Assembly: GCA_047967505.1 (NCBI GenBank)
Contig: CM106538.1
DNA: 64,000 nucleotides
Reading direction: 5' to 3' (one strand)
DNA from: Dipteris shenzhenensis
Lineage: Eukaryota
The translations under genes and the position numbers were made by a program. Below the pieces are notes generated by a model. That model did not search any database. It was given only the letters and a program-made list of their open reading frames with translations, and was not told where the DNA came from. Positions 3,481 through 48,290 of this stretch are shown in pieces. The stretch's first letter is position 1. Each line of letters begins with the position of its first letter.

Positions 3481-5291
3481 TAGTTGTAGACACAGTGCAA
3501 GAAATGTACTCAAAGTGTCATGAAAATCACTGTATGAAACAACTGCAAAACACTCACTATGACAACTGAAATCTGAACTATTGGTGTAGATAGCACTGCA
3601 ATATATAATTCAATCTGAATTACAAGGCTTGTGGCAAATTATGCTAGAATAGCCAAGAGGCTTTATAAGGCTGAAATGATGTGCACAATGCCGTGAAATA
3701 GCCAAGTAGGCTTTACAATGATGGCATGTGTGTGTGAAATCAAATCATGTGCTATCTGCCCACTGAACAATCGGCAATGCCTCTGAACACTCTGAAGTCT
3801 GCTCACTGAACTGATGAACATAAGGTTTCAGATAATGTGATGATGTGAAACCGTATGTGAGCATATGGACTGACTCCGAGTAGGTGCTAGTTAGGAATTT
3901 TGGGCATGGCTTAGATTGGCAACTTGGGGAGATTCAAAGCATCCCCTCTATGGCGATCTAGTCTACTTTGATCTAGATCTATACCAATTGTCGATTAATG
4001 AAAGAACTGAAAATAATTTCTTTTATCTGGTTCTTTTTATGTGGTGGGTCAGATGCTCGATGTAGAGGCTGATGTGCATGTAGGAAGTGGATTTGTCAGC
4101 GAAGGTCAAAAGTGAGTGATACTTGCATTAAAAAGTGCATGTGATGTGACGAGCACGTAGAGCATGAAAAATCTCTGAGTGCGGAGTCAACCGTCTCTGA
4201 GTGCCCAGGTGTTTATGGAGGCTGTGCACCTAGTAGACCGCTTGTAGTTGCAAATGAGCCATGGATGATCGTGTCCATGGTATAAGGTTGATGCTTGCTA
4301 GCCCGTAGCTTTAGAGCCCATCGTGGATTCACAATTGGAGCTTGAGTATAGGAGTCATTGCTCATGGGTGCTGGTGTAGCTTGAGAGCTCAGAAGGTCGA
4401 TTGATTGGAGGCAATGAAGCATGGTCACTGGAGCAGGAGGTCGCGTGCTGAGGCTAGAGCCATTGGTTAGCTTGGCGGTCTTGCAGGTTGTTTTGGAGTC
4501 CTTGAACTCCGCCTTGCAACATCGTAGTAGTTTGGTGGTGCTTACGAGTTGGAGACCAACATGGTCATTGGAGCTAGCTTGGGATGTGGGTGTGCCTTGC
4601 AGGATGATCATTTGGCCCTTAGAGAGGCGTTAGCCTTAGAGCTGCTATTACTAGCCTTTGTGAGCTGCTTGAGCATGGGAGTTGCTGGCGGCAATTCATT
4701 GCAGAGCTATGTGATAGATGGTGTTGAAGCTTCATCTGTCATCTTTAGCCATGGAGGTCCACTTTATGGAGCTGCCTTCACTGCTAGGTAGTAGAGCTTA
4801 GGCTCTTTGTGTGAGTTGGGCCCTTAGTTGTTGCCATTGAAGGTTAATCGGCACCGTGAAGCTATAGGACTCCGGAGCCTACTAGGATGTTGAGTCTTTG
4901 CTTATGAGTTGAAAGCTACAGAGACCTAAAAGTCTCTCTCGAAATGAACAAAAGCTCTCAAACTAGTAGAAATGAAAAAGAACTCTCTCTCAGTCTCTTT
5001 GAAAAAAAACAGATGTCTCTTTGAAAAAATAGATCTCGCAAGGTGCTAAATATCTCACAATCACTCAAAAGAGATGAACTCTCAACACTCACAACTGAAA
5101 CCTTTCTCTCTTTCTCTTGAAGAATGAATACTCAATCTCTCAAAGAACTCTCAAGAAAGTGAATGGACGGAAATTCTTCCAAGTGGATGGAAATTTCTTT
5201 CAAAGAAAAGCGGAGGGTCTCTCAATGGAAGAGAACACTCAATCTCTCAATCTCAATCAAGAATTGTAATGCCTCAGTGGAAGGCAAGGGA

Positions 5292-5303: not shown

Positions 5304-5533
5304 TGACAAAATATGAAGAGGGGAGAAGAGAAGAGTGGAGATGAGGAGAGAGGGCACAACTAGAGAGCACACCACAAATGACTAATTGTACACTAGATTT
5401 AGTTGAAAATGTAGAATATATACAAACCCATTTAGGGTTAGAGTTAGGGCATCTAACCCTTTTGTTTATAGCACTCTATTGGGTTAGTGCTATGCACATA
5501 TGATCACATGATGTTGAGCGTGAACTCTCAACA
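5304..5533 (-). repeat. 5' LTR of copia A (~230 bp)
   Basis: Minus strand reads TGTTGAGAG...TTTGTCA. It lies between the PBS and a (TG)n tract. The partner LTR is outside the window, so the outer boundary is unconfirmed. Confidence 0.7.
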
Positions 5534-5565
5534 TGTGTGTGTGTGTATTGGGGGAGGGGTGCATG

Positions 5566-5599
<34 letters not shown>

Positions 5600-5601
5600 A
5601 C

Positions 5602-5651
<50 letters not shown>
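5534..5651. repeat. Compound (TG)n/(GA)n microsatellite
   Basis: Directly visible dinucleotide runs. Confidence 0.97.
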
Positions 5652-5655
<4 letters not shown>

Positions 5656-6767
5656 CTATGAGTACAAGACACAATATTATTCAAGCAACATGTCCATAAT
5701 GTGCATAGGTACCTTGTGCTCTTTTTCATATATTCATTGAGGTAACATTCTTTTATAATACTTCATTGATCACTCATGATTTCTTAGCTTCATATAACGC
5801 CTCACAATAGTTGTGAGGGAAATAGAGAAGTAGTCAATAAATTTTGGTTCTTAAATGCAGTGACTTTAAATCCTTGTATATTGAATACTATCTAAGGGTT
5901 CACCTTTCTACTTTTGGGGTCGTTAATGATTCTCTTTCAAAGGAATTCGTGCAAATCAAAATATTTAATCATTTATACACTAATAATGCTATTGATCAAT
6001 GCATAAGGTGAAGGATGTATTGAATCTATTACCATTATGTACAAAGCTCATTTGATTGCTCACCTACTCTTCTGCTCTCTATGTTTTCTTGGTGAATGGA
6101 TAAGCATCTTTGTGTCTTAGCTACATTGAAATCAACAAAGGGCCTTCAAGTATAAAATAGAAACCTTTTTAAGTCAAATAACACTATATTGTTTTTATCA
6201 AAGGTTGAAAGGCAAACTTCGTTATGGCTATCATAATTGAGAACTTCATATGAAAGGGAAACTTGTTAAAGGGAGTAAATTGGAATTGAGGTGCAAGTAG
6301 AGATTATGCCACTCCAAAGATCATGAGTGGGTATGCCTACAAGTACAATGAGGATAAAGGAAGATGCAAATAAAATCTATTGCCACTATAATAATCATGA
6401 GTATGCGTGTTTATGAGTACCATTAACAAGATTTTATAAGGTGACTCTTCAACCTCCCACGTACTTAAGGCAAGTCTCATGTTGTATGACAAGTACAGGA
6501 GATAACCTTCAAGTTTCTAATCAAGACTTTTTGCATCCATATGAATGAATCAACTATCTTTGAGATTCCAATGATGTTGAAATATATAGAGTATTTGTTA
6601 AGACATCATACATTGAAAATTAATACTAAGTGGCATCTTCCTTTTGATTGAGTTGTAAAGTCACATCTCAACTTTGAGTCATATTCAAAAAATGCTTTGA
6701 GGGGTATAATGTCTTGTCATCTAACATATCATAAAACTCTTATGGAGAGAATGTTGAAGATTCATGT

Positions 6768-6884
6768 CTACATATACATATACATATACATATACATACA
6801 TACATACATACGTACGTACGTACGTACGTACGTACACATAAACACACGCATGCACATGCGCACGCGCACACACACACACACACA
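6768..6884. repeat. Compound microsatellite (TACATA)n-(TACA)n-(TACG)n-(CA)n
   Basis: Directly visible. Confidence 0.95.
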
Positions 6885-6928
6885 TCCCCCCTTCTATTCC
6901 CCTTGAAAAAAAGGGGGTGATAAAGCAT

Positions 6929-8101
6929 GAGTAAGTCGAAACATCAAGCAATTGCGTTTGAGTGAGCCGAGAGTTCAAGCGATGCTTGTGATGAACTTTT
7001 TCTAAACCTATAGTAGCAATACTTTTTAACTAGAAATGCTTGAATCTACATGACACTATTAGAGATTGTTCTTACTTATTTTTGGTATGATTCTTGGCAA
7101 GATACAAAGATAAAACTTACTATTGGGGATAACTCGCAAGTCCATGCAAGTCAGCAATGATTCAATGAATCCCAAATGAAAAATTATTAGCAACATACAA
7201 AGAGAAAACCTATTATTTGATAAATAATAAATCTATGCAAAAGGGGAAATGCTTCAATGTCTACACCTTGAGGTAGTCACTCAAAATTATGTAAGGTAGC
7301 ACGTGAGTTGGACAGGTTTCTTTATTTTGCGGACTTACATACAAATAACAATAGTCCCACCCATGATATAGAAGCTCCTCCTCGAATAATCCTTCACAAA
7401 AAACTATTTGTAGCTCATCGATTTTTATGCTATCCATATGATTTGATCCATTTTGTACACAAAATGATCACATGAATAAAATGTTTAAACTGTGAAACTA
7501 ATAAATTATTGATCACCTTATGACCATGATGCTAACAAAATATGGATCACCTTCATATGTCCATGACCATGTATATGCCTATGAACAAAGGACCCGAATT
7601 CTATATGAGAAAATTTTAAGAAAATATATAGTTTGATAAGGTTTAGATCTCATGAAATGAAGATAAGTACAAACTTTCTAAAGCTCTAGACTTTTGACAC
7701 TCTAACATGATAAATGGATTCATTCATATCATATTATTTATATCATTTTGACTACAAACATGACCACATTTGGAGTTTGATTGACCAAGTTATGGCCCAA
7801 ATAAAATTGGCAGGAGGAGCCTCCAGGGAGGCCGCGATAAGGAGGCTAACCCCTTTCTTCCACCCCTCCTTCTTCCTTGACCCTGGCAAAAACATTGCCA
7901 AACATTTTCAGAAATTGTTGTTTGTATGTAAGATAATTGGTTACTCACAATATCATGGGTAGGACAACAATTGTAAAGGTAAGCAATGCATGCTAATTTT
8001 TGAGCATAAAGCATCACACTAAAATGTCAATTTTATTATGAAAGTCCTCACTCAAACTATCACCTCACTCGAACATAGTCACTCAAATTCTAGTAATCCT
8101 C
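6929..8101. mobile_element. ~1.17 kb non-coding segment flanked by a 9-bp direct repeat; possible non-autonomous Mutator-like insertion
   Basis: ATAAAGCAT at 6920-6928 and 8102-8110. Absent from the paralogous site at about 17037-17045. Ends are GAG...CTC, with TTTGAGTGA-type motifs in inverted orientation near both ends. Confidence 0.5.
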
Positions 8102-9419
8102 ATAAAGCATGGGACTCACCTCCTAGGTAATAGACATGGAGATCAAACCTTATAATTAGACAACATCTGATGTGATGTATACTGGCAAGGATAGCCCCGA
8201 CTAAACCAATGCATGGCATCAAAAAGTATAGAATAGCCTATGGGAGCAAACGAAGATACTACAATGACTACCTGAACTAGAAATAGCCAGGTATACTATG
8301 ATGACCAAGGAGTAGACCCTTTACTAGATGATGCTTACTAGAGAAGGAGAGTACAAAAAATGAGGTCTAATTAATAATGAAACCGCTATATCTCTAGGGG
8401 GGTATATTATGAACTACAAAGGAATAGAAAAATCCCATTTGATTATAGATGGGCCTCATTATTAGTATTGCATCTATCAATGGATGGACTAGAACACTTT
8501 ACAACTAAGTTGATTATACTAAGGAACCCATAAAAAATCCACCTTTGATTTATTTGAACCTTCCCAGGAAAACATGGAAAATCCACCTTCCTAGGAACCC
8601 ATTGAACAGCTACCTTTGATTTATTTGAACACTGGGATAGCCATACATGAACATAGAAAACCCTGGGATATAGGCTTTGGATATGGGGGAAATATGTAGA
8701 CCTAGGGCTAATTGGCAAGTGGTGCAAGGGAATATAGTATTAATGATTTTGAAAAGGGAAAAATAGATGGAGAATGTTAGGAAAAAGTGGAAATTATGGG
8801 CAGCCAAGGGAATGAATATGGAGCACCCCCAGTACCCCTTTGGATATTGACAGGCAATGTGTGGTTAGAAGATGAACTAGTGGGGACCCCTCGGGATACT
8901 ACCGCCTTATTGGTGGAAAGACCTCTAGACAGTGGGTAAAAAGGAGTATACTAGGATTTGAAAGAATGCAAAAGGGGTATGGCAAGGTACCCATAAGAGA
9001 GGAATGCACCATTGGAGGAAGGACACATTATGAAGTAATGGGTGTACTGGTACATGTACTAAAGGCAAAAGGTACAAGTCAGTATGGCTAAGTCCTTGGT
9101 GCCAAAGGGGTGTAGAGGCTTGGAGTTATGAGCTCCATGCCTAGGTGAGAGGAAGAGACTAGGTTCACTCGAGAACAGAACCCGAGAATCTTTGGATGCC
9201 TCGGAATACGTGGCAGCCTTAAAGGAATAGACCTTGGTGCAAGAATCAGTGGATATATCTAAGCAACACTCAAGTAAAGCCACTGAGCTCCAGGTGGCTA
9301 GACTGATGACCTTGAGGTGTGAACCCTAACAAGGGGTAGACCATGAAATGAATGAGGAGAACTGCTCACACCTCGCTCCCTTGGAAATATGGATGATACC
9401 CAGGTATTACCTACCTTCT

Positions 9420-10383
9420 TTTTTTCTTTTTTTTTTCAAAGAAAGGAACCTTCTATTAATTCTTGAAAGACTTCATACAAGACAGTAGCCCCAAAGGTGC
9501 TCAGTATGGAAAAATTTGAAAAAGGGTAAAAGAAAAGAACCAACCTATTCTAGAGAAACCCAGCTCACTGCCTAGGGGATCTCTGGTACTGGGGCTAACA
9601 ACCAAGTGGGGGGACTATACAACTAGAGAATCCCTCATGGGGTGAAGATGTAGAAAACTCATGCAGGCCAAGCCTTGCAGAAACGAGCACACCTCTCGAT
9701 AGTTGCCCTAGAGCTTGGAGTCCCATGCTCCCAGGTGGATCATAGTGTGTAGATGATATCTTGCCAGATGGCAACTAGGGCAGCCGAGGGTGGAACTGGG
9801 TGCTCACTCATCACGAGATTGCAAAAAGCCACCCAAATGTTCGACGCAGTGATGCTGGCTACCACCTCCCAAATGCTGTCCTCCATAGGAGAAGGAGGAG
9901 CTAGGCTATTAGGAGGGACTGCCTCATGGAGTGCTATCCTTTGGATGCTTTGACCCTATATCCGGTAGGCTAGGGAGATCTCATCAATCTAGAATGTGTG
10001 TCCTCCCTCTGTCAACTAGGCCACCATCCCCTAGGTGTAGTCTCTCTGAAGACTCTGCATACATGTCATGATCCTGAGGGCTTCCATCCAAATCCTTGCT
10101 ATGCTATGACAACTCCACAGGCAGTGTGGGATAGTCTCTAGGAGACCATCGGAGCAACAATGGCACTACCCCTCCACTTGCCATCTACTCCAATTCCTCT
10201 CCAACCATGGTCTGATGGGAAAGCTTTCGTGGGCAGGCAACTAGAAGAAGTAGGACCATAATCGCATCCAAAACCTAGAACGGACATCCCGAGGCACTCT
10301 CTGGGTCACTCAAATCCTCTCCCTTGAGGGGGTCCACCTCAATGAGTCCATCTAAAGACTCTTGCAATTCTGTGTGGTGTAGG
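9420..10383 (-). mobile_element. 5'-truncated L1-like LINE
   Basis: 18-bp TSD AGGTATTACCTACCTTCT (9402-9419 and 10384-10401). Poly(T) at the left end. Minus-strand zf-RVT-like remnant CHCCSDGLLETIPHCLWSC near 10105-10170. Empty site at about 38728-38745. Confidence 0.88.
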
Positions 10384-10511
10384 AGGTATTACCTACCTTC
10401 TATGCAAAGCCTTGTGCTGTCACTCCCTAGAGCTCTGTTTGCAAGGAAGAGGCTGCAATACTCAATAGACCTGAGTGCTACAAAAAAAGCACAAGAGTCA
10501 AACGAGAAACC

Positions 10512-11234
10512 TGTAAGAAAATAGTACGCAGCGGAAGATAACAACAAAACGCAAGTACACGATGGAAAGCTGGAGAGAATACAAAACGCAAGTACACGAT
10601 GGAAAGCTGGAGAGAATACAAAAATTCTGATATACCAAACTGCTGATACAACTGATGGTTGGCTGTCCACCCGTGCGCTCTACAGACAGAGCTTCGATGG
10701 TGATCTAGACAGATGCTGGACGGAGGACTATGAGCGTGAAGAACTGGTGATCTGATGATAGGGGGTGGCCACTTATATAGTGTAAGTGGTTGACGGTCGG
10801 CCCTGTAATAGGCAGTCGGCCTAATAGACAGTCGGCCTGGAAGACCACCGACCCTTCAGAAAACATACCGGCGGGCAGATGAAGGATCGCGCATAGGTCA
10901 TACCGTCGGGCTACCGGCAGCCCCCGGACCCTGCCGCTGGGGGCTTTGCCCCCAGACCCCCACCGGGGGCCTGCGCCCCCCGGACCCCCTGCTATCGGGG
11001 GGGCTATCGCCCCCCCGAACCCCCCCTTTGTGCAGACGGGTATCTACTCTTGGCTCCTAAGCCGTCTCATAACCATCTGGTCTACTCTAAGACCCCTTCC
11101 AGTGTCTAAACTGGGGATCCCTCCCAATATCTGATACCCATCATGGCTTCTCCTCATATGGGGGCCTTACAACATTGGGTACACAGAATATTGGTGGGTT
11201 ACATGAGAGGTGGACATTTGAGCTAACTCTAACA
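10512..11234. mobile_element. Solo-LTR-like insertion (723 bp)
   Basis: TG...CA ends. 5-bp TSD AAACC (10507-10511 and 11235-11239). Absent at the paralogous site near 38857-38861. Confidence 0.8.
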
Positions 11235-14200
11235 AAACCCCTCTTGGGGATGATGAGCCTTCTACCACTGTGGCTGCCTAGTCGGAAGAGCCACTTACTT
11301 CTGCTCATATCTAAGCATCCTCTAGAGACACAGGGATTATCCCAAGCTAGCTTCGTGCATGAAGGAACTCTACTACATGGTATAGCTCTACCTGGTCACA
11401 ATGACCCATTCACGATAATGCATAGACAACGCTCACCGTATGCATGTTTGTCGAACAACCTCATGAGAGATACAACATGTTGCTGAAGAGTTTTTGAGGA
11501 TCGCCAGTGGACATATGATTTTTTTATATCTCTTATGTGGTTGGCTTGATAGATTTTCATATGGTTTTCATGTATCTCTTGTTTGGGTGGCCAGTGAGGA
11601 GCTAGCCAAGGTCAAGTGGTAAGTCGACACCCCTCCCTACCACTGTAATGGTAGAACTACAAGCTTCCATAAAGGATTGTGACAACATATAGTTGCTAGT
11701 ACTACGCGAACTAGATGCAAAATGGCTATAGACTACGTAGAACATATAGCCTATGTTTGTATACACCTCATGGTGCTAGAAGTAATCAACGATTTGGTCT
11801 CATATTGGCACCAAAAAGTTGTCCTTCGCTTCTGCCCATCAGCTCCTAGAGTTGTGAAATAAGCAAGATGCAAAGTGGTTTGTTAGCTCAGTGCCCTAGT
11901 CATGGCATAGTGAGGTTTGCCACCACAACGGTCTACACACATGGAGCTCGGAGGGATGAAGTACCACCTTTGATATATTAGACATTCAGTTTGTGTATGA
12001 AGGCATTATACATTGCTATTACAAACATCAAGTCCCATAGAAGGTCTCGCGTATAGCTAGCTACCTTGTATGGCTCAGTAGTGACTAGAGATAGTATATC
12101 CTTTGAGGAGCGTTTCCCTTTAAAGTTTTTTTTGCAACGTTGCATCCACTGGTTGTAGCATGGAGTTCAGACACGATCCCATCGGTCTTTGGAGCTCTGA
12201 AAGTTCATTTTAAATAAAAACGGTGGTATTACGGGTTGCCTTGACCTGGAGGAGTGCATCTAGATGCACAAGGAATCTAGGGATACAAAGTGAAGACACT
12301 ATACTCATACTCTACAAACTATGGCTTGCGTATTGCTTACTATACCTCTGGATAGTATATATTGAGAGTAAAAATAGTTTCGTCCTCAGCAAACATATGC
12401 TATATAATATGCTCACGGCAAGTATACAATGAGTGGCATTTTGTTTTCTACAATAGCCTTAGAAGTTTGGCTTCTTGCCACTGTGTTTCTTCTATGGAAC
12501 CATGTAGAAAACTATTTGTGTGTAGAGAATCAATGGGTTGGAGACTTGACTACGTGTTAACACGATGATAGAGGTGAACAAATTGGAAATATTGCCGGCT
12601 AAGTGCAACCCTCCATTGGTTTTGTGCAGGTTTCGATTAAGGATTAGGTGGGAAATGGAATAATTTATTGTTATGGTGGAAGGACGAGTGACATCATATG
12701 CTTGGATGATTCTTAATAGAACAATGTTGGAGTACTATATAGTCGCTTGAACCCGGAGAGATGGCCTACATAGTTGATATGGTGTCACATAGAGGATAGA
12801 ATATTGAAATGGGAGAAAAAAACTAGAATATATAATGGGAGATTCATTGATAACTACAAACACTGGCAGTCCCTTGAAAACTTGGAAAGTTAGTAGGACC
12901 TTATGTAAATCTTCATTGCTGGCTAAGATGTGTAACAGATTATCATGGTGCTTAAAATAGTCTAAAGGACTTAATAAAAAATTCAATGAAAAGAATTACA
13001 TTTATTACACGGTTTTGTTTAACATTATATGACATAGCATATATGGGAACATTTTCACGACTATTTAGATTTGATTTACCCCCAAGAAGCTAAAATTTCA
13101 TAGGATTTTTCTGATGGATTGTGTGGATGGACATGGATAACAAATGTCTAGGGGTTTTGATGCCTACCTTCCCACTGAAATCTACCTAACATGGTTTTCT
13201 TTGGATGGTGGCAAGTGAGTCCCTGCACTTCTCTGCAAGATTCTATGAGGATAATTAGGATGGCTTGGGTGATGCAACAAAAACAACATTGGCATAGGTA
13301 GTTTTGCCACTGGGACAAGAGATGGAATTATAATATTGCCTTTGTCTTGGTGATAGACCTATAGTGGATTTTTTTATATTTTTGAATGTATAGAAAAAAA
13401 CATTTTTACCATTAGGAGGCCTATAAGTCTAGATATGATTTCATATAAATAGAATGATTACTGAGAAGCTTGAGACATGGGACCCATGCCTAATAGTTTT
13501 GATGCAAATATAGCAAAACTTTTGAATGACATGTGAAATTCTGCAGTTATATTGGCTATGCTAAGAAATCACCTGAGACAATGAGAAATTTGTTCAAACT
13601 TACCACCTATAGTAGGTCCATTGTCGCTAGATAATCTGGGATTAAAATGCTTTTCACTACCTGAAACAACTTCTAATGGGCTATATACTCAGACCAGCTT
13701 ATGACTACCACAATCACCCCCAAAAAGAACTCATCACATACCTACATAAACCCCTTTTTTCCACCTTGGTTATTGGAAGTAGAATTGATGGCATATGACA
13801 ACAAAAATTGGGAAATACATGACATGAACTTGTTGGCACCATTCTCCCTGGATACTTGGATGTTTCTAGCAGACTTGGTGGCAAATTAAAAACCCATCAA
13901 AGCAGAAGAAAAGAGAGCAACACATAATTTCCAAATCAGATTGGTACATAACTATCCATTGGCAAGTTTCTTTCCCATGTCAACATTTGCCATAGGGAGA
14001 TGTGCATCACCCGTTGGGGTCTTCAGGAGAAGCAAAATTAAAACATCAAAAATTGAGAGGAGGATGCCCAAATATTTAAATGGCATTTTCAATGTTGGAA
14101 GCCCTTACTTGAAATGTAGATGCGTGGAGGAATGCATTGATTGTAAAGCCCTGCCATTATGGTTTGACCATGCAATATGGTTCATTGCTTATAACCTCCC

Positions 14201-14761
14201 CTCCTTTTCCCCCAACTGCCCCTTGAAAGCCGCATTCAACTCCTTTTTACTCTTTATGAAGACCAATGACATGTTACAATTTTGCAAGGCATCACTCAGT
14301 TTCTACTACATGAGGGAGTTGGTTCTGATGGCAATCAAGAACTTGGAAAAGAACTTGTAGGCCCCTTTACTCTCGTAGCCATCCTTGGGCATCATGTCCT
14401 ATGGGGATCTGATGCTAAGGTCACTAGAAGCACAACCATTATGGTCCATTGGACTTGCGAAAAGAGCTAGGTTTGCTGGTTGCATAGGAATGACATGGGG
14501 ACATATACGCAGCACGTCATATGAACAAAGAACATAAGGAGTTGATAGACTTATTGATTGGCAGCCATCCTCATAAAGTTTAGTCCATTTGGACAGCCCG
14601 AAATCACAGACAGGTAAGAACTACTAAAGCACTTAGAGGGGGCAAGGCAATCTCATACACAAGTTTGAAGAGTGGTACACTCCCCGTGCGCCATTTGTTA
14701 TATGATGACAAGGATTGATGACTAAAAGATATGTTTGTTTTTTTAGGGAAGCTTATCCCTA

Positions 14762-16766
14762 ATGCCTCATGGAAGAATAACATTGGAATGTAACAAAAAT
14801 GCCTCGAGCCTATTTATACATGTATTGTTTGATAATTCCTTATTGGAAATGTTCTCCATAAAAGAATTGATGTTTGAATTTTTCATAAAATGGGACTATG
14901 AACAAGGAATTGCTTTGTTGGATGAATTATCCTTTGCTTGGAAATTTCATAAACTACTATCAACAATACTCTACAAACCTGAAATAACATTCATAAGAGG
15001 TGTAGGTAATAGTTGCAATTGCCATGCAAAGGATCTTGCTGGTTTTATAAACAAAAGGTGGGGTCATGTAGTGACACTTGATACAAGGATTATAAAGTGA
15101 AGGCCTTACAAAAGGAGGTCTAAAAGGGGTTAAACCATATTGTCCAACATAACTATGACATCGAAGGGGTGTTACAAGCTTTACGAGAGGTATGGTATAA
15201 ATTAGAATCACTTTGTACGGCCTCTACGATCCCCTTTGGATGTTTGGAACATCACTTTGTTAACTTTAGCAGAGAGAAAGTATACGATATAGCCAAAGAA
15301 GGATTAAGAACTACAAGGACATCCCTCTAACCATGGAAGATGCAGAAGTTAATGAGGAGATTGACCATCTTAAGTCATGCCTACTTATTACTTTGACTGA
15401 TAAGTCATCAATCACACCAACATTTATCTACAAGAGTTTCATATTCACCCAAGCAAGGGAGAGAATGAGGAGCAATGACTTCCAAATTGTGAAGGACCCA
15501 CATATCCTCGACCGATTGGTCAGAGAGATAAATCACTTTGACTTACACTACAGTCACTTTGACATTACCTTACTTAATGGCCACTTATAAGGCCCATGTA
15601 GAAGCATTCCAGTGGACCACCAATGCCCATGCATGTGTGCTCTCAGAAATAGCATCAATTATGACGTTGATCCTACAAGGGTGTATGGAACCGATTATGA
15701 GATATGCTAATGACCTCCAAAAGGAAATTTGGAATAGCACAGAGATCCAAACTTGCACTTTTTGGATTGTGAACTCAATTTATGAAGTCAAGCTTAACCT
15801 ACCCAAGAAGATTCATTATGTGTTCACAACTGACATTGGGAAGTGTTATGAAAACATCCCATTGGAAGGAGAACCAGGTTTGAAGGATGTTATGAAACAA
15901 GTGATTGCATGTGCATTTGAAAAACAAGACCAACAATACATTTGTGTCCACCTTCATAAGAAGAAAGTTACTGGGACAGACATAAAAACAGGAATAGGGA
16001 CATGCATGACTTAAGAGCAATGCATTGAACTGAATGATTGGCTATTGGGAAGCATGCACATCCATTTAGGAGGGGAGGTGTTTAAACAAATAGATGGGAT
16101 CCCTATAGGTTTCTCATGCTCACCCTTATGGTGCAATCTATACCCCTTTTGGTTTGAATTTAAAGCTATGCTCCAGATCTAGAAACTAGATCAATGGGAT
16201 TTGCTTAGGAACTTTGAGAACACTTATAGGTTTATGGATGATATACTTATCATAAATGCGAAAACACCTACAACATTCTTTAACCCTGCACATCAAGGAG
16301 ATGATGATCCTTGGTGGGTCTATCCCCTACAATTCTCGGAGATAAAGGAAACAATAGACACTAAGGACCTGGACCCAAAGGGCCGAGAGATTGGCACGAA
16401 AGCCAATTTCCTTAATATGACTATCACGATCACCCAAAGGAACAATGGGAATACGGTTATGACTAAGTATGATAAGATAGACTCCCTTACTCCCTTCCAT
16501 ATCAGGTTTGTAAATACATTTGGGTAGACGAGAATAGACCAAAATCCTTTGCGGAAAAAGTGATTCTTTCACAAATAATGCCGATTCTATACATGGAGAA
16601 ACATGAGTTCAATGCCTTCTTAAAATTGAAAGGTTTAATTGAGGCCTTTGGGAGGAATGGATTTGATACAAAGAGGAGCAGGAAACTAGTCACGAAGTTC
16701 CTGAATCAACCCTTCCCAGGGTGCGACCTCGATGTAAAAAGGATAAAAAAATGGATAGGTAAATAA
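14762..16766 (+). pseudogene. PLE-type (telomerase-related) reverse transcriptase with upstream CxC linker, disrupted
   Basis: Motifs in order: CNC...GHVVTLDTRII, TLTDKSS (DKG-like), LPYLMATYKAH, FWIVNS, TDIGKCYENIP, QIDGIPIGFSCSPLWCNLY, YRFMDD, NFLNMTI, YDK. The frame ends after the thumb with no C-terminal nuclease. Confidence 0.87.
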
Positions 16767-16911
16767 AATGATTACTCTCTTGACTGTTTTGATTTTAAAA
16801 AAAAAAGTGATATACGTTTGGGTAGTAGTCCGACCCACTCCTATGTGAGGGGCAGATTATGACCCCTACTAAGAGTGTGTGTCGGGACCTGTGGGTTTGT
16901 GGTTGGTGGGA

Positions 16912-16976
16912 ACACACACACACACACACATACACACACACCCCACCCACCCACCCGCACACGCCCACACACAAAG

Positions 16977-17009
<33 letters not shown>
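16912..17009. repeat. Interrupted (CA)n microsatellite separating the two PLE copies
   Basis: Directly visible. Confidence 0.95.
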
Positions 17010-17010
<1 letters not shown>

Positions 17011-18138
17011 CCCTTGCCCTTGAAAAAAAGGGGGTGATAAAGCATGGGACTTGGCTCCTAGGTAATAGATATGGAGATCAAACCTTATAATAAGACATCT
17101 GATGTGATGTATATTGGGACAAGGATAATGCATAGCATCAAAAAGTATAGAATAGCCTGTGGGACCAAACGAAGATACTACAATGATTGCCTGAACTAGA
17201 AATAGCCAAGTATACTGTAATGACCAAGAAGGAGACCCCTTTAGTAGACGATGCTTACTAGAGAAGGAGAGTAGAAAAAAGGAGGTCTAATTAATAATGA
17301 AACCCCTATGGCTCTAGGGGAGTATATTAAGAACTACAAAGGAATCGTGAAAAAAATGGGAGTCGCGAGCTAGAGATCCCATTTGATTATAGGCACGCCC
17401 TGTTATTAATATTGCATCTGTCAATGGATTGACTAGAATACTTTTTAACTAAGTTAATTATACTAGGGAACCCATCGAAAATCCACCTTCGATCTATTTG
17501 AACCTTCCCAGGAAACCATGGAAAATCCACCTTCCTAGGAATCCATTGAAAAGCTACCTTCGACTTATTTGAACACTGGGATAGCCATACATGAACATAG
17601 AAAACCCTGGGATATAGGCTTTGGATATGGGGGAAATATGTGGACCTAGGGCTAAATGGGAAGTGGTGTGCAAGGGAATATAGTATTAATGATTTTGAAA
17701 AAGGAAAAATAGATGGAGAACGTTGGGAAAAATTGAAAATTATGGACAGCCAAGGGGATGAATATGGAGTACCCCTAGTATCCCTCTAGGTATTGACAGG
17801 CAATGTGTGGTTACAAGATGAACTAGTGGGGACCCCTTGGATACTACCGCCTTATTAGTGAAAAGCCCTCAAACTGGTGGGTAAAAAGGAGTATACTAGG
17901 ATTTGAAAGAATGAAAAGGGGTATGGCAAGATACCCATAGGAGAGGAATGCACCATTGGAGGAAGGACACATTATGAAGTAATGGGTGTACTAGCACGTG
18001 CACTAAAAGCAAAAGGTACGAGCTACTATGGCTAAGTCCTTGGTGCCAAAAAGGGTGTAAAGACTTGGTGTTATGAGCTCCATGCCTCGATGAGAGGAAG
18101 AGACTAGGTTCACTCAAGAACAAAACCTGAGAATCTTT
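17010..18138 (+). mobile_element. PLE copy 2, left part
   Basis: Colinear with 6885-6928 plus 8111-9193. Confidence 0.8.
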
Positions 18139-19317
18139 TGTTGTGGGTCTCGGTGGTGACTCAAGTGTCATGGGGATGTTGAAGATATGCCAATGGAGCC
18201 TCCACTCCTAGCTACTCCTTGTGGGACCAATGCAAGGCACGAGCTATCCGCAAGTGTCATGCAAGCAGCCTCCAAATTGTTGCAATGTGGTTCCATGCGA
18301 GAAGGAGGGAACAGAAAGAGGGGAGAGGAGAGGGAGAATGGAGGGAGAAGGAGAAAGGAAGAGGAGAAGGGAAGGAAGAGTGAAGGGGGATAGAGTGGCA
18401 ACCACAAGGGTACTACAATGGAAACAAAGAACACCCAAAACACTCTCTTGGAAGAGAAGAGGGAGCTTGTATTCAAACTTGTGCAAACAACAATGAAGAC
18501 CAAAGTCAACCATTTGGCCTTTTATACAAGTCACCTTTTGAGGGGAGGGTCAACCCTTTTCCTTTTTAGCACTCTCCCTCTCTTTACAATGAAAGGCTCT
18601 TAGGCCCATAGGGTGCCAAGGCATATTGCTATTCTTCCCATCTCTCCCTACTAGCAGAAATAGCGCTTGTGTTAACCATATTAGAGTGCTTAGGACAAGC
18701 TTGGCATTAGGAGGTGTTCCTAACCGGCTCCCAAATAGCGCTTGTGTTAGCCTCATGCCTCCTAGGCTTAGGTGATTTGGGGCTCAAACTCCCTGACTGC
18801 CCTCATGCCTTAAACCATTTGTGGTTCAAATCCCATGCCTGAGGCTCAAAACCTAGAGTGGCGAGGCTTAACTTCCGCAAGACACTCAATGGTAACCCTG
18901 CATGTTGCCTACAATCTTTTGCCTTAGGATATTTAGGGATCAAACTCCCCGAGTTTAAGTTATACTTCTTTCATGGCTATTTTCATTGGCATGGCTATTT
19001 TCATTGGTGTGGCTATTTCTGTGGATGTAGGCCTGAAATGTGCATGTTGCTTGCACTCTTTGGTCTTGGTGTTAGCTGGAACATACAACCTATGCATGGA
19101 ATCCTTGAATCCTTGGACTTTGGGGTGGACTTTGGATATTTGGGGATCAAACTCCCTAAGTTTGAGCTATACTCCTTCCATGTACACATTACTTGTAATC
19201 ACTAGCCTTGGGGTATTTGGGAGTCAAACTCCCTGAGCTTGTCCATTGCAATGGATCATGTGGCCTGATCACCTTTAATCCTGCATTCACAACAACTGTA
19301 CTCTGTGGATGTTAACA
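18139..19317 (-). repeat. 3' LTR of gypsy 1
   Basis: Homologous to 37348-38512; TG..CA ends. Confidence 0.93.
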
Positions 19318-24897: not shown

Positions 24898-27657
24898 ATG
24901 GCATCTGATGCTCTTTCATAGATTGTCACTGAAAAGCTTGTCAAGAACAACTTCCAAGCATGGACGTTTAGAATGACGAATTTCCTTAAGGGAAAAGGTT
25001 ATTTGCAGTTCATTACTGGAGCTGAACAAGAACCAGTTATTCCTAATGTTCTCAATCAACAGGAGTTGCAGGCATTTAAAGGCTGGCATGAGAGAGCCAG
25101 AAAAGTTATGTACTAGCTGTCTATCAGTATTTCAAATTCTATGATTGTGCATATTCAGGATGCAAGCACACCAAAGGAGGCGTGGGATACTTTGACAAAA
25201 ATATATAGCACAAATACGCAAGCCAGGAAAATGCAGCTCAAGTAGGAGTTGCATAATGTGCAGAGAGAAAATATGAGCATCAATGACTACCACATGAAGG
25301 TGAAGAAGATTGCAGATGCACTTGCTTCCATTGGGTCGCTAGTGGAAGATGATGATTTAGTTTCTGTGACCTTGAATGGTCTAGGAAAGGATTATACACA
25401 GTTTCGGACATCCATTGCCGTCCATGAGAATTTTCCTGATTTTGGGGAGTTGATTGCTCTTCTAATTTTTGAAGAGCAGAGAAATGGTGGTGCATCTTCT
25501 TCAGGAGGAACCTCAAAAGAAACTGTCTTCTACTCAAATGCTGGAAGAGGTAGAGGCAGAGGTAGAGCAAGCCAATCTGGAAACCGTGGCAGAAATCAGA
25601 ATATGCAGCAAATTCAAGAAAACCAGTTTTATGGAGGAGGACGTGGTAACCTTAGAGGCAGGGGGAGCCAAAGAGGTCATGGTGGATGGCAGAGAGGCCA
25701 AAATGCAAACAGCAATGCTGAATGCTACTACTATGGTAAAATGGGTCATATGGTTAAAGACTACTATAAAAAGTAGAATGACATCATGACTGGAAAATTG
25801 CAGCAAGGCAATTATGCATCCTCTAGTAGACAGGTGATGATAGAAATGAGCATCTGTTTATGGTGCAGCACATGACCAATTCTGTGACAAGTGCAGAAGA
25901 AAGCAATGATGTGTGGTATGTTGACTGAAGTGTGCGTCAAACCACATGACAGGTCATGCAAAATGGATACAGGATGCAAAGAAAATGGAAAGACTAGGAT
26001 TTGTGGAGATTGGTGATAATACTACACATCCTATTGTGCAGATTGGTAAAATTCCTTTGTCTATGTAGGATGGAAAAAAGAAATACCTGTCTAATGTATT
26101 TCATGTCGCGAATATCACCAAGAACCTGGTTTCTGTTGGTCAAATGGTTGAGCAATGCTTGCAGGTCAGATTTAATCCTTATGGATGCTTTGCTAAGGAT
26201 ATGAAAAATAAAGGTCGCTTGATAGCAAAAGGGAAGAAGAAGGGCAGGATGTTTACGTTGGATGCGGACATGCCTGAATTGAGTGCAGCAATGTTTGCAC
26301 ATGGGACCGGTGTAGTTGCAAATATTGATATTTGGCATAAACGCATTGGTCATGTTAATTTACAATGACTTAAATTAATGCAGGCCCAAAATATTGTTAC
26401 AGGATTGCCTAAGTTCAAGGTTGCAAAAATGAGGTATGTGAAGTCTGTCAATTTGGAAAATAGGCAAGGAGACCATTTCCTAGACATGTTGAAGAGAGTA
26501 AGAGGCCATTGGAATTAATCCACTCTGATGTGTGGACTACTAAAGTTGCATCTATTAGAGGCTATCATTTTTTTGTCACTTTTATTGATGACTATAGCAG
26601 AAAAGTTTGGGTGTATTTTATAAAAAAGAAAAGTGAAGTGTTTGGGCATTTCAAAGCTTTTAAAGCTATGGTTGAAAAAGAAACAGGCCTGCAAATAAAA
26701 TGCCTAAGGTCAAATGGAGGGGGAGAGTACCTCTCAAATGAGTTTGCAAGTTTCCTGCAAGAGCATGGCATAAAGCAACAATATTCATGCAGTCATACCC
26801 CACAGCAAAATGGACTTGTACAAAGGAAAAACAGGCATATTGGAGAGGTATCTCGTGCCATGCTCAACGAAAAAGACCTACCAGATTATTATTGGGCTGA
26901 AGCAGTTGCTACAGTAGTCTACATAATGAACATGACTCCCACTACAGCAATACATGGCATAACACTAGAGGAGACGTATACTGGTAGGAAATCGTATATT
27001 TCTCATTTAAAAGTTTTTGGTTGCATTGCCTATGTTCATGTGCCAGATGAGTAAGTTGGATCCAAAAGCTGAGAAGTACATCTTTATTGGTTATTCTCTA
27101 AAGCAGAAAGGGTATAGATGCTATAACCCTTCTACTCGTAAGTTTATAGTGAGCAGAGATGTTGTTTTTGATGAGATGAGTAGTTGGTATAAACCAGTAA
27201 ATGTGATTGATGATGTAGATGCAAAAAATGGTAATGCTACACAGAATTCATAGGAGCAATCACAAAATATTAGTGGACTTGTAATGTCCTCTAGTAGTGG
27301 TTCACATACTTTGCCATGGACAGGCAGATTGAGATCAAGAGAATCTCCTCAAAGCGATGCAGATAGTGGTATGCAAGTATCACAAAAGGAAAAAGAGAAA
27401 GTAGATTATCCCATGGTTGATGTGAATGCAGGTCTCTCTTCTGTGGATGGTGAATCCAGTGGCTTAGAATAGAGCCTTGATGATGAGTTGGGTATTCCTT
27501 CTGTTGTTACACCTGGAGTGAGGAAGACAAGGGATGTTTTGAGAGCACCTGGTAGTGAGCCTACTTTGTGCAAGTCTACCATAGTTAAGTATCCTGTGGA
27601 TAGGCTGAAATATGATGGATTTACAGCCATTCACTATGCCTATATGGTCAAAGTGAT
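24898..27657 (+). pseudogene. Copia B gag-PR-integrase, degenerate
   Basis: UBN2-type gag (MSINDYHMKVKKIADALASIG, LNGL), a decayed zinc knuckle, [35 protein letters not shown]. Confidence 0.9.
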
Positions 27658-27819: not shown

Positions 27820-30800
27820 CTATTGCCGTTTGGCCACCATTGGTGAGCGAAGCAGTTTGGGCATGCCAATCAATTTGATAATTGATGGCATAGCACCAGT
27901 TCTTCCTAGTATAATATGTTCTTCGGTTGCTTTTGTGGGGAGAACATAAAATCGTATATCCACTGCTTGGCGAACAACCATTAGACTTAAATTTACAAAA
28001 CCCAAAGTTTGTAGGAGTTGGCCATTTATGGCTCTTATTGAAGCGACTATGAGGTTTAGGGGTACCTGTAGCTTTTCCCATACCTCTAGGGAGAGGAAGT
28101 TGTGGCTCACTCTTGGATCTATGAGTGCTTTGATGCACATGTGTGGGACATATAGTTGAATAAGCAACCTGGCTGGCTCTACCATTAGCTCCTCCATTAG
28201 TTGCTCTTGTTCAATCATTGCCTTAAGCAGTGCCATTTGCCTATGCTCTCGGAGCTTAGCATTATAAATTCTGGATTCCTTGATGGCCTGACATTTCATC
28301 CTGGCCACCTCGGCGTTGAGTTCTTTTCCTCTATGCACAGCTTGAAGGGTGGAGGGAGTGAGTGATCTGTAGTATCTTTTAAATTTGCTCCTGTTAAGGT
28401 AGCCATCCATTTTTATCCCATCAAGGGTGGCTATTTGGCACGACCCTTGGGGAGTGATCTCAACTACGTGATACAGACCCATTTCTTGGTACTTAATCTT
28501 GCATTTGGTATTACGGGTGCTATATAGGAGCGCCAAATCTCCTTCTACTAGGTCGTTGCTCTTGAGGTTGTGATCAAACCACCTTTTGCGTCGAGCCTTT
28601 TCTACCTTGAGAGAGAGGCTACACGCAACCGTGTCTCTTCTAACTTTTCAAGGTCGACTAGCCGTTCCACTAGCACATTTTCTATGAGTCTTTCCTTCAT
28701 GGCAAGATGGAGGCTAGGCACTACAAACTCCATTGGCATTATTGCCTCCACCCTGAAGGCTAACATGAAGGGGGTACAATGTGTGACCACTTTGTAGGAG
28801 GTTCTGTAGGCCCATAACGTTGCTATGAGCTTATGCTCCTAGTTGGTATGACTGGCTTCTACTGTACATGTGATGATTTTACATGTTTTGTCGGAGCTCT
28901 TGGCCAAGCCATTTGCCCTAGGGTAGTATGGCGTTGACTTCCTATGAATGATCATAAACTCACTAGTCATGATTGCTATTATTTCATTGAGGAATTGAGT
29001 TTCGACTAACTCCAATGGACATCCAAACCATGTAACAACTTGTTCATATAAGAATTTGGCAGTGGATCTTGCATCAGCCTTCACCGTGGCTCTTCCTTCT
29101 ACCCACTTGGTGAAGTAGTCGGTGGCCAAGATGATGTATTTGGCCCCAGTCCCCTTAGTTGTTGGGCTTATGGTACCAATGAAATCGATGCCTCATTTTT
29201 CAAAGGGTTGGTCGGCCAAGATTTCGGTCAGTGGCATCATGTCTGCGTTGTGTGGGATTAGGATATGTTGATAAGGGTTGCATCATTTGATGAATTTGGC
29301 CGTGTCTTCGAAGAGTGTCGGCCACCAAAGACTAGCTTGCAGCACTTTACGTGTTGTAACATTAGCGGCAAAATGACCTCTTGCGATTCTTGAGTGGGCT
29401 TCTACAAGCACATCGATGTGTTCGTGTTTGCACATGCATCTTCGCAATATTCCATCCTTGCCCATGTGGTATAGTTGGGCTGCTATCAGCAGCTGATATG
29501 GTGCTATGTCCTTAATGAGTTTGCAGGCTCTATCCTTCTTAAGGGCCTGGCCTAGGGGTAATCCATTGGCCAAGTAGTGGCCAATTTCGGTGGCCCATTT
29601 AGGAATGATGTCAAGGAAGAAGAGAGAAGTGTTAGGGAGATCATCTTCTACTCCCGGTGGAGCTTCACCATTCGGGATCCTCAATAGGTGGTTGGCCAGG
29701 ATGTGGGTTTTGCCTTTACGTACAATGACTGTGAAGTTGAATTCTAGCAGGATTAGCATCAACCTGGTGATGTGTCCCATCATGCAGGGTTTTTTGACCA
29801 AGTATAGCAATGCTTGATGGTCCACAAAGAAGACAAACTTGTTAGCTAACAAGTAGTGCTTGAACTTCTTGACTGCATAGACCATGGCGAGACCTTCCCT
29901 CTTAGTGGTAGTGTAGTTAACCTCGGCCTCATTTAGTTGCTGGCTCACAAAATATACCAGGTAATCTAAATTATGCTCCCCGGGTTGGGCTAACACACAT
30001 CTGATGGCAAAGTTAGAGGCATCAATATGGACATGGAATATTAAATTCCAGTCGAGTGACCTCAACACTGGTGCAGTGGCTAGAGCTAGTTTGAGGGTTT
30101 CAAAGGATGTTTGACATTCCTTGGCCCCACCCAAAGGATACTAGTAGCTTGTATAATGGGTGGGCTATGTTCGCATAGAGCACGATGAATCTCTAGTAAT
30201 AGCTCGTGTGGCCCGTAAATCTTTGTACTCCCTTGACATTGGTGGGGGGCGGTAACTCCAAGATGAGTTTGATTTTATTATGGTCCATAGAGATTCCATT
30301 TGGGGACACTATGTGGCCCAGGATGACACCATGTTTGACCCAAAAGTGGCACTTAAGGGGGTTGAGGGATATGCAGTATAAGTGGCACTTCTTGAGGATG
30401 AGCTTGAGATACTTTAGGTGGCCATCCCATTTTGAGTTTATGCAGATATCTTCCAAGAAGACTTCCACAAAGTCCCTCAGATATTCCTTGAATATCATAA
30501 TCATCATCCGTTGGAAGGTAGCAAGGGCATTGGTTAATCCGAATTTCATCACCCTAGTTGCATATACACCCCATTTGGTTGTGAAGGTGGTCTTATGTTG
30601 ATCTTGGGGTGCGATCGACACTTGTTTGTAACCTAAAAATCCATTTAGGAAGCTATACGCTTCCTTTCTGGGTACCCTCTCTAGAACATGTTCCATGAAT
30701 GGCAAGGGGTAGTGGTCACATCTCGTGGCAACATTAACCTTTTTCAAATCCACGCATACTCTAATTTTTCCATTTTTCTTTAGGACTATCATGATGGGTG

Positions 30801-32600
30801 ATACCCAGTCCATATGCTCAATCTCATAGATGAATCTAGCATCTATGAGTTTTTGGATTTCTTCCCTCACTATGAGCGCGCATTTAGGATTCATAGGGTA
30901 GGGGCATTGCTGTAGTGGCCTAGAATCATCTAGCATGGTGATTGTGTGCTGCACTACTATGACATGCACCCCTTTCATGTCAGTGTACTTCCAGGCCATG
31001 CAATCCTTGTATTTTTGTAGGAGAGCTATTAAGGCATTCTCCTCATTGGGGGTGAGGTCATCGGTGACAAATATTGGTTGTGGGTCCTGCCCTTCTAGGG
31101 GTAGGTTTACCTCTTTGATCGAGGCTGGCCCATCATACCCTTGAGAACAACCATCCTCCCAAGACCTTTTGGCCTGTTAGTATAAGATCTTATGTTCTTG
31201 AGTAGTATAGGCCTTGTAGTGGGCTGGTACCTATCATAGGTCCTCTTTATCCTCAATTTCTTTCACTTTTTTTGCCAGAGCAGTGGTCTTTTTGGCTTAG
31301 CCTTGCCTTTAGATATAGGGGATTTTGGTCTTGATTTCCCTTGTACTTATAGAGCTAATAGGGGTGGTTACCCTACTTACCCTATTTTCCTAGTTGGAGG
31401 AGAACTCGTGGTGAGCAGTCGTGGCACCTACGTAGGAAAGCCAGTGAAGATCTGATTTTACCCTCATGATTCCCTTGCTTACCTCTCATGGTTTGAGCAT
31501 GTTAAACATTCTTAGGGGAACCACTGAGGTCAAACCCTCAAGCTCTGGGGTGGTGATTTGAAACCCCACTCTTTTGGGGACATATACATTGGCTAAGATG
31601 CGCATCTAGTTCTGTGATAATTTTGGCTCGGGGAGAGGTGCATACCAGAAGTCATCAGACTCCTTCTCATCCTCTTCCTTGTCATAGGGTTGGAATAGCT
31701 TTATGGAGGCGGTTAGGGTGGTGGTGTCGAACTCTGCAGCAAAGAGGTGTCCTGACAATGGGTGGGCCTTGTAGGTGTGTAGGTCCACTCTCATGGTTTG
31801 CTCCTCGTGCTGCAAGTAGATGTTATCATTACGCCAGTCATGCACGAGTCTGGACATTCGCAAGGACCTACCTAAGATAGCTTCATATCCTAGATGTCGA
31901 GTGAAGTCCATGACCATGGACCTGACAGGGTACATGAACCCAAATACCTTAATATTTATGCGAATCAGCACTCCCAGGGGTTCAACAGTTCCCCCATTGG
32001 TTAACTTTACTACCAGATGGGTCTGCTCAAGTGCGGGTTTTCCCCATTTCTCCTAGCTTTCATTGGTGTAGACACTCACTCCTGCTCCCCCATCTAGGAT
32101 GGCTTCCACTTCTGGTTTTGATAGACTATGGGGATAGAGGCATTCGTGTCATCACCCTCGAAGTACTGGCCTAGCTTGTTGATGGGAACCTTAGGTAGGT
32201 TATGCCCCTTTTCTAATGTTGATTGGTTGGCAGGGGTTGGAGGTAAGAATGGTTTGTTCATCCAATTGGACAGATCACACCATAGGATGGGATTTCCTCT
32301 TAGCAGGGAAGTGATCGGCATTTTTACCTCTGTCAATAGGAAAGCAGCCAACCTGGTGCTATCATAGAGCTTCGGTGAAGCTTCTTACTCCATGGACAAC
32401 ATGTCCTCAAAGTCGTACATGTCTCCTTTCATGCAACACTAGGTCTTCTTGGAACATCAGATTCAAAGCTTCTGTCTGCTCAAAGATGAGGTGTTTCTCT
32501 TCCTCCACCCTTTTTGGCACCTTGGCGATTTTACCCCTCGGTGGCCCATCAGGTAGGCTGGATGAATAGTATCTGATCCCATAGTACTGGCCTTTAGTCA
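27820..32600 (-). pseudogene. Gypsy 1 pol (PR-RT-RNaseH-IN plus C-terminal second protease), degenerate
   Basis: PR ILDGGAGVS...EAILGR (31860-32110). RT WVSPIMIVLKKNGKIRVCVD and FGLTNA (30193-30999). RH DASNFAI (29283-30134). IN DYFTKWVE and YYPRANG (28839-29129). GPY/F-like module (28370-28536). Confidence 0.93.
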
Positions 32601-48216: not shown

Positions 48217-48277
<61 letters not shown>

Positions 48278-48290
48278 TCCTTCTTCTTTT

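Follow-up and report, generated by a model that had tools for sequence, protein, structure and literature searches.

What kind of retroelement left the broken reverse transcriptase (RT) that occupies positions 14762-16766 of a 64,000-nucleotide stretch of Dipteris shenzhenensis DNA (contig CM106538.1 of assembly GCA_047967505.1; hereafter, the window)? A preliminary description, based on the letters of the DNA, had assigned it to the telomerase-related Penelope-like elements (PLEs), more specifically to the Naiad/Chlamys clade with a permuted, N-terminal GIY-YIG endonuclease (EN), and had suggested an undescribed vascular-plant lineage. Here, we report that this interval is open reading frame (ORF) 2 alone of a larger element and conclude, with a probability of about 85%, that 14747-16766 is ORF2 of a dead EN-less Penelope-like retrotransposon of the PLE-X subgroup, within the Chlamys/Naiad clade that combines a CxC motif, an IFD and a TERT-like RT. 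The family represented by this locus is new and divergent, and its host is new as well, but the kind of element is one described before. All coordinates are those of the window, and features lie on the + strand unless stated otherwise.

PLE-X denotes the EN-less elements of Chara and Selaginella, a subgroup of Chlamys (Craig, Yushenova, Rodriguez & Arkhipova 2021, Mol Biol Evol 38:5005, PMC8557442). In the sections of that paper drawn on here and below, PLE-X has so far been curated from Chara and two Selaginella species alone, the Selaginella elements residing in the 28S ribosomal DNA (rDNA) and those of Chara being spread genome-wide; the rDNA site is not treated there as defining the group. 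[quoted passage not shown] The zf-CDGSH-like CxC motif preceding the RT is given there as diagnostic of Naiad/Chlamys as a whole.

Five overlapping open pieces in shifting frames between 14747 and 16766 join to give a reverse transcriptase consisting of a pre-CxC region, a CxC linker, a DK motif, RT fingers and palm, and a thumb; position 14762 is the ATG of 'MPHGR'. The linker motif (15008-15082) opens with the CxC signature 'NSCNCH' (15008-15025) and closes with 'GHVVTLD' (15062-15082). It is followed by 'GLNHI' (15127-15141) and the DK motif 'LTDKSS' (15393-15410). The RT core (15565-16527) runs from 'LPYLMATYKAH' (15565-15597) via motif A, 'FTTDIGKCYENIP' (15823-15861), motif B, 'GIPIGFSCSPLWCNLY' (16096-16143), and motif C, 'YRFMDDILI' (16225-16251), to the start of the thumb, which continues to a TAA stop at 16764-16766. 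This series of motifs is far beyond chance. In a 22-row alignment with relatives (A1), C50, C52 and H66 (numbering of the Selaginella protein P0002) are near-invariant, as are D177, K178 and A179 of the relatives' 'G.DKA', with which 'LTDKSS' lines up; a regular expression for the CxC linker matches 30 of the 53 homologues of at least 560 amino acids. The best alignment of the RT core is with residues 241-557 of P0002 (38% identity over 324 columns). Between the Asp of motif A and the Gly of motif B lie 88 residues, pointing to an IFD-type insertion. With X at its two stops, 15532-16527 matches Pfam RVT_1 at E 2e-6 and 28.1 bits, slightly below the cut-off of 29.6 bits, the match stretching 165 protein residues over 108 profile positions. 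Because the match stays below threshold, annotators will miss or mislabel copies of this type.

ORF2 is interrupted by at least four frameshifts, near 15083-15124, 15213-15273, 15530-15568 and 16491-16503, and by two in-frame stops (16012-16014 and 16180-16182). At its 3' end, residues 662-749 of the 749-residue relative P0014 align with 16494-16754. Since ORF2 ends where intact relatives end, there is no space for a C-terminal EN; a Pfam scan of 16476-16766 returned no family and no C-terminal GIY-YIG. In these respects the preliminary description was accurate: the CxC linker, the DK motif, RT motifs A to C and the thumb are all present, the frame is broken, and the C-terminal GIY-YIG is missing.

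With 15532-16527 as query, HMMER run exhaustively against 1.84 billion representative proteins returned 1216 matches at E ≤ 1e-3. The best of these, a 662-amino-acid protein of Selaginella moellendorffii (E 2.5e-63, 40% identity), exists in many near-identical copies, several of them on one contig. Chara braunii proteins rank after Selaginella, a 195-amino-acid fragment from Diphasiastrum complanatum is 44% identical over the matched stretch, and the remaining matches are mostly metagenome or Logan proteins. Even the closest proteins are only 38-44% identical to ORF2, and a word-based search for longer homologous proteins gave nothing at E ≤ 1e-3.

For tree construction, an RT-core alignment of 60 rows was reduced by P0105, P0126 and P0136 (very long end branches) and by the half-filled P0055, and a careful IQ-TREE analysis was carried out on the resulting 56 rows and 357 columns. 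A branch with 100/100 support separates a 40-row clade, which holds this RT together with the Selaginella pair and the Chara trio, from 16 rows that include all five proteins in which Pfam detects GIY-YIG. Within the 40-row clade, the nearest rows to this RT are P0011 and P0012 (86/93); the node that unites these three with Chara, Selaginella and metagenomic rows has 74/82. The Diphasiastrum fragment groups with this RT in a quick LG+G4 tree that was thinned (50 rows, with 13 short rows added) (SH-aLRT, the Shimodaira-Hasegawa-like approximate likelihood ratio test, 87). The tree position of this RT therefore indicates a distinct lineage inside the EN-less group. Homology and motifs agree with the earlier view that the RT is of neither the LTR (long terminal repeat) type nor the LINE (long interspersed nuclear element) type but a Penelope-like RT of the CxC/IFD branch. 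Its attribution to Naiad/Chlamys stands in the wide sense, on CxC, DK, IFD and tree, and fails as regards membership among the N-terminal-EN elements.

The family RT also resembles telomerase in its predicted fold, which lends support to the earlier epithet 'telomerase-related' at the level of the family. An AlphaFold2 model of the intact Selaginella relative P0002, built on the 22-row alignment that includes this RT, reached a predicted local distance difference test (pLDDT) of 89 and a predicted template modelling score (pTM) of 0.86. In a Foldseek search of the PDB with this model, ranks 1 to 16 are all TERT (E 3.5e-11 to 2.7e-5), followed by a DRT2 RT and then by viral RNA-dependent RNA polymerases and a group II intron RT at 4e-4; the TERT alignments span about 640-660 columns at 10-14% sequence identity. 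Between motifs A and B, the model has a helix, beta-strands and a helix where TERT has its IFD, and this insertion appears, in the model, to resemble the IFD/TRAP arrangement. A PDB search with the single sequence gave no matches.

To determine the distribution of the EN, 48 homologous proteins were scanned with Pfam. GIY-YIG was found in five of them (P0104, P0111, P0117, P0145 and, weakly, P0070), in each case N-terminally and always in distant matches (E about 1e-11 to 1e-17); no C-terminal GIY-YIG was found in any of the 48, and the close relatives among them carry no GIY-YIG. The ORF piece upstream of ORF2 contains no GIY-YIG by Pfam either. A custom hidden Markov model (HMM), built from seven EN-bearing N-termini, was run on all 2016 six-frame pieces of the window. 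As a positive control it recovered 12 EN-bearing proteins at E ≤ 1e-22. It found nothing near the element, the best nearby match having E 3.7, with nothing within 30 kb; the best match anywhere in the window (E 0.021) lies at 47178-47417. The permuted N-terminal-EN layout proposed earlier, and with it a grouping with EN-bearing members, is thus not borne out by Pfam, the custom HMM or the tree.

Instead of an EN, the region upstream of ORF2 carries the remnant of a second coding part. This ORF1 remnant (13686-14477), corresponding to the N-terminal extension of PLE-X, was delimited in a single frame by tblastn and an HMM. ORF1s of five intact relatives from metagenomic contigs (L001-L004 and L006) match the window by tblastn at E 1e-13 to 3e-20, and the ORF1 HMM does so at E 3.9e-19 and 8.9e-6. 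The open piece of 156 codons at 13890-14357 aligns over its full length with residues 36-161 of Chara P0019 (BLASTP, E 4e-12), and also matches P0013, P0054, P0085, P0024 and Selaginella P0153. The remnant contains 'PYLKCRCVEECIDC' (14103-14144), which includes 'KCRCVEECIDC', and 'LWFDHAIW' (14157-14180); across 12 rows, C320, C357, C359, W373, D375 and W379 are invariant. Three in-frame stops interrupt it, at 13887-13889, 14358-14360 and about 14376, and stops together with a frame change set it apart from ORF2. The HMM covers profile positions 194-395 alone, all downstream of 13677. The 5' part of the core (12916-13685), for which neither homology nor a self-BLAST copy in the window was detected, would hold the N-terminal third of ORF1, if present. 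The element thus has two coding parts, an ORF1 with a C...CxC...C...WFDH core and ORF2, neither with GIY-YIG. With frameshifts and stops in ORF2 and three stops in ORF1, the copy is dead; insertions of transposable elements (TEs) later split the composite. A GT...AG intron at 14357-14746, between an extension exon and ORF2, was considered and rejected: phase is not preserved, and the intron reading was dropped because 14358-14477 aligns, without a change of frame, with the ORF1s of intact relatives.

A scan of metagenome contigs (alignment A3) yielded 21 related loci (L001-L021). Six of these, L001-L006, are intact or nearly so, and each has two long ORFs. Their ORF1 measures 490-593 amino acids from stop to stop, with the extension in its middle and an RG-rich tail, and their ORF2, of about 756-760 amino acids, comprises CxC linker, RT and thumb. 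In intact relatives, the so-called N-terminal extension is therefore a full ORF1, in contrast to the short leader exon of PLE-X. The relative position of the two ORFs varies: in L001, ORF1 (frame 0) and ORF2 (frame 2) overlap by some 70 nucleotides (2778-2847), and in L002 and L003 they lie about 120-200 nucleotides apart. The other 15 loci (L007-L021; contigs of 3.5-59 kb) are decayed RT copies of the same group with many stops, so that dead PLE-X-like copies seem to be common in some sampled eukaryotic genomes.

Searches for a function of ORF1 gave few leads. Pfam scans of four intact relatives' ORF1s returned no family and no GIY-YIG, and a protein atlas search returned unnamed clusters alone. 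An AlphaFold2 model of ORF1 was poor overall (pLDDT 53), with a core of about 70-89. With this model, the wide VIA-align search gave single-helix or coiled-coil matches alone (Z 5.1-5.5, residues 142-189), and Foldseek against the PDB gave nothing at E ≤ 0.001. Chara P0013 has a weak GRF-type zinc-ribbon match in Pfam (E 0.006, below the cut-off), which we regard as a lead only.

We next consider the limits of the element. By self-BLAST, the core is single in the window, whereas its flanks are repeated. The upstream block (6865-12915), read as a pseudo-LTR and 5'-truncated tandem copy, consists of (CA)n (6865-6884), a 45-nucleotide leader (6885-6929), a segment X of about 1.1 kb (8102-9193) and a segment S2 of about 1.3 kb (9190-12915), giving a (CA)n-X-S2 terminal block of about 2.5 kb. 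Downstream of ORF2, a 3' spacer (16767-16910) ends in the G-rich motif GGTTGGTGGG directly before a compound (AC)n microsatellite (16911-17009), identified by Tandem Repeats Finder, pattern search and inspection of the sequence. Leader and X follow at 17010-18138 and S2 at 38514-39823, where the composite ends. The stretch 6867-6929 matches 16984-17046, 8102-9193 matches 17037-18138 (87% over 1122 columns), and four S2 pieces match 38514-39823 (81-90%); the shared sequence stops at 12915 upstream and at the corresponding position, 39823, downstream. Upstream S2 blocks at about 9418-10383, 10512-11234 and 11778-12490 have no downstream counterpart and represent later insertions. The upstream leader likewise contains a 1.17-kb insertion (6930-8102), missing from the downstream copy and surrounded by a 10-bp direct duplication, ATAAAGCATG (6920-6929 and 8103-8112).

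The two parts of the downstream block are separated by an LTR retrotransposon of about 20.4 kb (18141-38512), with TG...CA LTRs at 18141-19317 and 37350-38512 and flanked by TCTTT and ACTTT. The upstream junction of X and S2 (GAGAATCTTT followed directly by GGATGCC, near 9190) serves as the empty site, because X and S2 adjoin there. As its interior holds both copia gag and integrase on the + strand (25246-27054) and gypsy RT, RNase H and gag on the - strand (29283-34963), the 18141-38512 element is itself nested. The Kimura two-parameter (K2P) distance between 17010-18138 and its upstream copy is 0.104 (1074 aligned sites), and the pooled distance of the two flanking blocks is 0.125 over 2424 sites, slightly exceeding the 0.111 of the nested LTR pair, as required. 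LTR-dating rates are 1.3e-8 per site per year, or several-fold slower; at such generic rates, the divergence of the blocks would correspond to roughly 5-15 million years.

The relatives display a comparable arrangement. In L001-L004 and L006, the 3' spacer ends in ACC(A)GGGG...GGTGG[A/T]GGG directly before a (CT)n run, located 160-540 nucleotides past the ORF2 stop. The ends of L001 are 100% identical over 123 nucleotides (1-123 versus 6609-6731; unit of about 6.6 kb), and those of L003 over 89 nucleotides (32-120 versus 5424-5512; unit of about 5.4 kb), which means that these elements assemble in circular or tandem form; a junction of this type lies within L006, where the sequence after the (CT)n continues into the next ORF1. 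Hence, in all three relatives that permit a judgement, the block 3' of the microsatellite is the block 5' of ORF1, and since the relatives share this layout, the microsatellite marks the unit junction in the whole group. RNAalifold predicted no conserved pairs in the 3' ends of six sequences. Taken together, the core at 12916-16910 is probably the interior of a unit that measures about 6.5 kb and has 2.5-kb pseudo-LTRs, and the arrangement suggests that a full copy (12916-39823, about 6.5 kb without the nested element) lies directly after a 5'-truncated one. The microsatellite insertion bias noted earlier holds insofar as (AC)n adjoins the 3' side; it is better read as a pseudo-LTR or tandem junction than as a plain target flank. 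At its upstream edge, the composite has a compound microsatellite of the form (CATA)n-(ACGT)n-(CA)n (6770-6884), in keeping with microsatellite-associated integration.

The same PLE-X identity might also be combined with a simpler structure lacking pseudo-LTRs, in which 12916-16910, a core of some 4 kb, went into the (CA)n that lay between tandem, unrelated repeats of 2.5 kb. Chlamys elements do target (CA)n (PMC8557442, in the sections used here), the (CA)n-X-S2 block has no detectable similarity to the relatives' leaders, and with only three (CA)n arrays in the 64-kb window, adjacency to one of them suggests targeting. However, such an insertion must have struck the exact boundary of two repeat copies, and L001, L003 and L006 show the arrangement seen here, which is the pseudo-LTR and tandem layout documented for PLEs (PMC8557442, same sections). 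Moreover, unrelated 2.5-kb tandem repeats led by (CA)n correspond to no TE type known to us. We therefore regard this structure as unlikely, although it is the most serious competitor to an element with pseudo-LTRs. A different objection concerns identity: an N-terminal-EN Chlamys/Naiad element could have lost its GIY-YIG here by 5' truncation or decay. As far as the consulted part of PMC8557442 shows, CxC, DK, the long spacing between motifs A and B and the microsatellite association are common to the whole Naiad/Chlamys clade, and the undetectable N-terminal third of the upstream ORF implies that something was lost. Against this, what lies upstream is a recognisable ORF1, homologous to the extension of the EN-less Chara and Selaginella elements and to the ORF1s of the six intact metagenomic elements. 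GIY-YIG is absent from all six (by Pfam for the four ORF1s scanned), the EN HMM is blank within 30 kb, and the fully supported branch parts this RT from every EN-bearing protein in the tree. Loss of an EN is accordingly a highly improbable explanation. The TERT-like fold, finally, might suggest a host gene or a domesticated RT, such as a TERT paralogue or another RT-derived gene. Yet the frameshifts and stops of ORF2, its setting among decayed Ty1 and Ty3 elements, and the multiplicity of its relatives, found in several copies on single Selaginella contigs and as repeated or tandem units in metagenomic contigs, leave this idea with next to no credibility.

Several observations nevertheless weigh against assigning the locus to an EN-less, PLE-X-type element with the structure outlined above. 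The one PLE-X trait that could not be recovered is the canonical hammerhead known from the Chara and Selaginella families: Rfam detected none at gathering score in the whole window, none at E ≤ 10 in 12000-19000 and none at gathering score in 20 related loci, and custom motif scans of the window and the related loci revealed no hammerhead at the element. Decay, or the poor detectability of minimal PLE hammerheads, may explain this lack; membership in PLE-X is weakened by it. The deeper branches within the 40-row clade are weak (74/82 and 54/67), and the placement is relative to database proteins labelled by Pfam and source names rather than to a curated set of Chlamys, Naiad, Hydra, Dryad, Athena, Coprina and TERT sequences. 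The N-terminal third of ORF1 is undetectable by HMM, and no family or fold match backs any function of ORF1. The profile comparison with TERT envisaged in the preliminary description was not significant, the A1 profile reaching TERT at E 1.4 among PDB sequences. Lastly, termini and pseudo-LTRs are deduced from one repeat pair in the window and by analogy with metagenomic contigs.

Compared with described systems, the element is closest to PLE-X, with which it shares the CxC motif before the RT, the TERT-like RT in which a long insertion separates motifs A and B, the missing GIY-YIG and an upstream extension with CxCX1-8C (here C-R-C-VEE-C) apart from the main ORF; its best database matches are PLE-X hosts' proteins, from Selaginella and Chara. 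It differs from PLE-X in its amino acid sequence (30-40% identity), in forming a separate branch with P0011, P0012 and the Diphasiastrum fragment, in having no detected hammerhead and in carrying a microsatellite at its unit junction. Unlike the Selaginella PLE-X elements, it does not reside in 28S rDNA, as Rfam finds no rRNA match in the window. With the N-terminal-EN Chlamys/Naiad elements it has in common the CxC linker, the DK motif and the IFD-type insertion, and also a probable pseudo-LTR or tandem structure, an association with (CA)n and, as in most of those families, no canonical hammerhead. It lacks their defining N-terminal GIY-YIG, and its RT falls across a fully supported branch from the EN-bearing proteins in the tree. 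TERT is the closest solved fold, judged by the model of the intact relative, but the element is multi-copy, mobile, decayed and non-telomeric DNA with a second ORF. Like the Athena and Coprina PLEs, it has no EN and hence depends on existing DNA ends; unlike them, it is an interstitial copy among LTR retrotransposons and possesses CxC, a distinction made here from their description. The C-terminal GIY-YIG that it lacks sets it apart from Penelope, Poseidon, Neptune, Nematis, Hydra and Dryad.

The suggestion of an undescribed vascular-plant lineage can be retained in part. Nothing found exceeds 38-44% identity to the family, which lies outside rDNA; Selaginella, itself a vascular plant, had already been described as a host. 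In the accessible portions of the literature, including PMC10288648 and PMC11630846 and leaving aside Repbase, Dfam and the supplements of Craig et al., neither ferns nor homosporous lycophytes are reported to carry PLE-X or Chlamys elements.

An intact copy of the element would work as follows. Both ORFs would be encoded by one RNA that sets out in the upstream block and stops where the downstream block ends, and ORF2 would reverse-transcribe this RNA at the target. Because the element has no nuclease, it would rely on pre-existing 3'-OH ends, which the RT would extend, probably in simple repeats; repeats at the target would pair with the junction microsatellite of the element, which is (AC)n in this copy and (CT)n in its relatives. 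Template switching would yield the tandem arrangement and the pseudo-LTRs, and ORF1, which in intact relatives has a long helix, a Cys/His core and an RG-rich tail, would bind nucleic acid or the target. A bolder version is improbable: the locus may belong, together with its intact metagenomic relatives, to an uncurated two-ORF, EN-less PLE lineage of seed-free land plants in which the junction (AC)n/(CT)n after the conserved GGTGGNGGG end is an integral working part. The TERT-like RT would prime on the repeats or add them by reiterative, telomerase-like copying, and DNA targeting, or a cryptic nuclease in place of GIY-YIG, would come from the Cys/His core of ORF1. If true, this version would answer the question of Craig et al. 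(PMC8557442, in the part cited here) of how PLE-X integrates genome-wide without an endonuclease.

With their telomerase-like RT and no nuclease, PLE-X are the least understood PLEs. The present locus shows that a related but distinct family was formerly active outside rDNA in another repeat-rich land-plant genome, a family that probably carries pseudo-LTRs with a junction microsatellite. This dead copy has no functional consequence of its own; the conserved ORF1 core and the conserved, repeat-adjacent 3' end of the group offer concrete objects for work on mechanism.

Apart from the element, decayed Ty1/copia and Ty3/gypsy elements make up the window as a mosaic. The best named relatives of a copia RT (68% identity) and of a gypsy RT (55-64%) come from the fern Adiantum nelumboides, and the nearest named PLE fragment, that of Diphasiastrum, comes from a lycophyte; a seed-free vascular plant, probably fern or lycophyte, is thus the likely host type on sequence grounds. 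A custom CUGANGA...GAAA scan of the window gave a single match, at 3811-3850, with a helix II of 4 bp (0.16 expected in shuffles); this match lies well away from the element and is unrelated to it in position, and Rfam does not support it. Two more partial copies of the LTR at 18141-19317, 80-85% identical, are present on the - strand at 63585-63997 and 55816-56194. In addition, a (TG)n run followed by a short simple repeat occurs at 5534-5651, the short repeat recurring at 48078-48342, on the opposite strand, and at 52987-53022.

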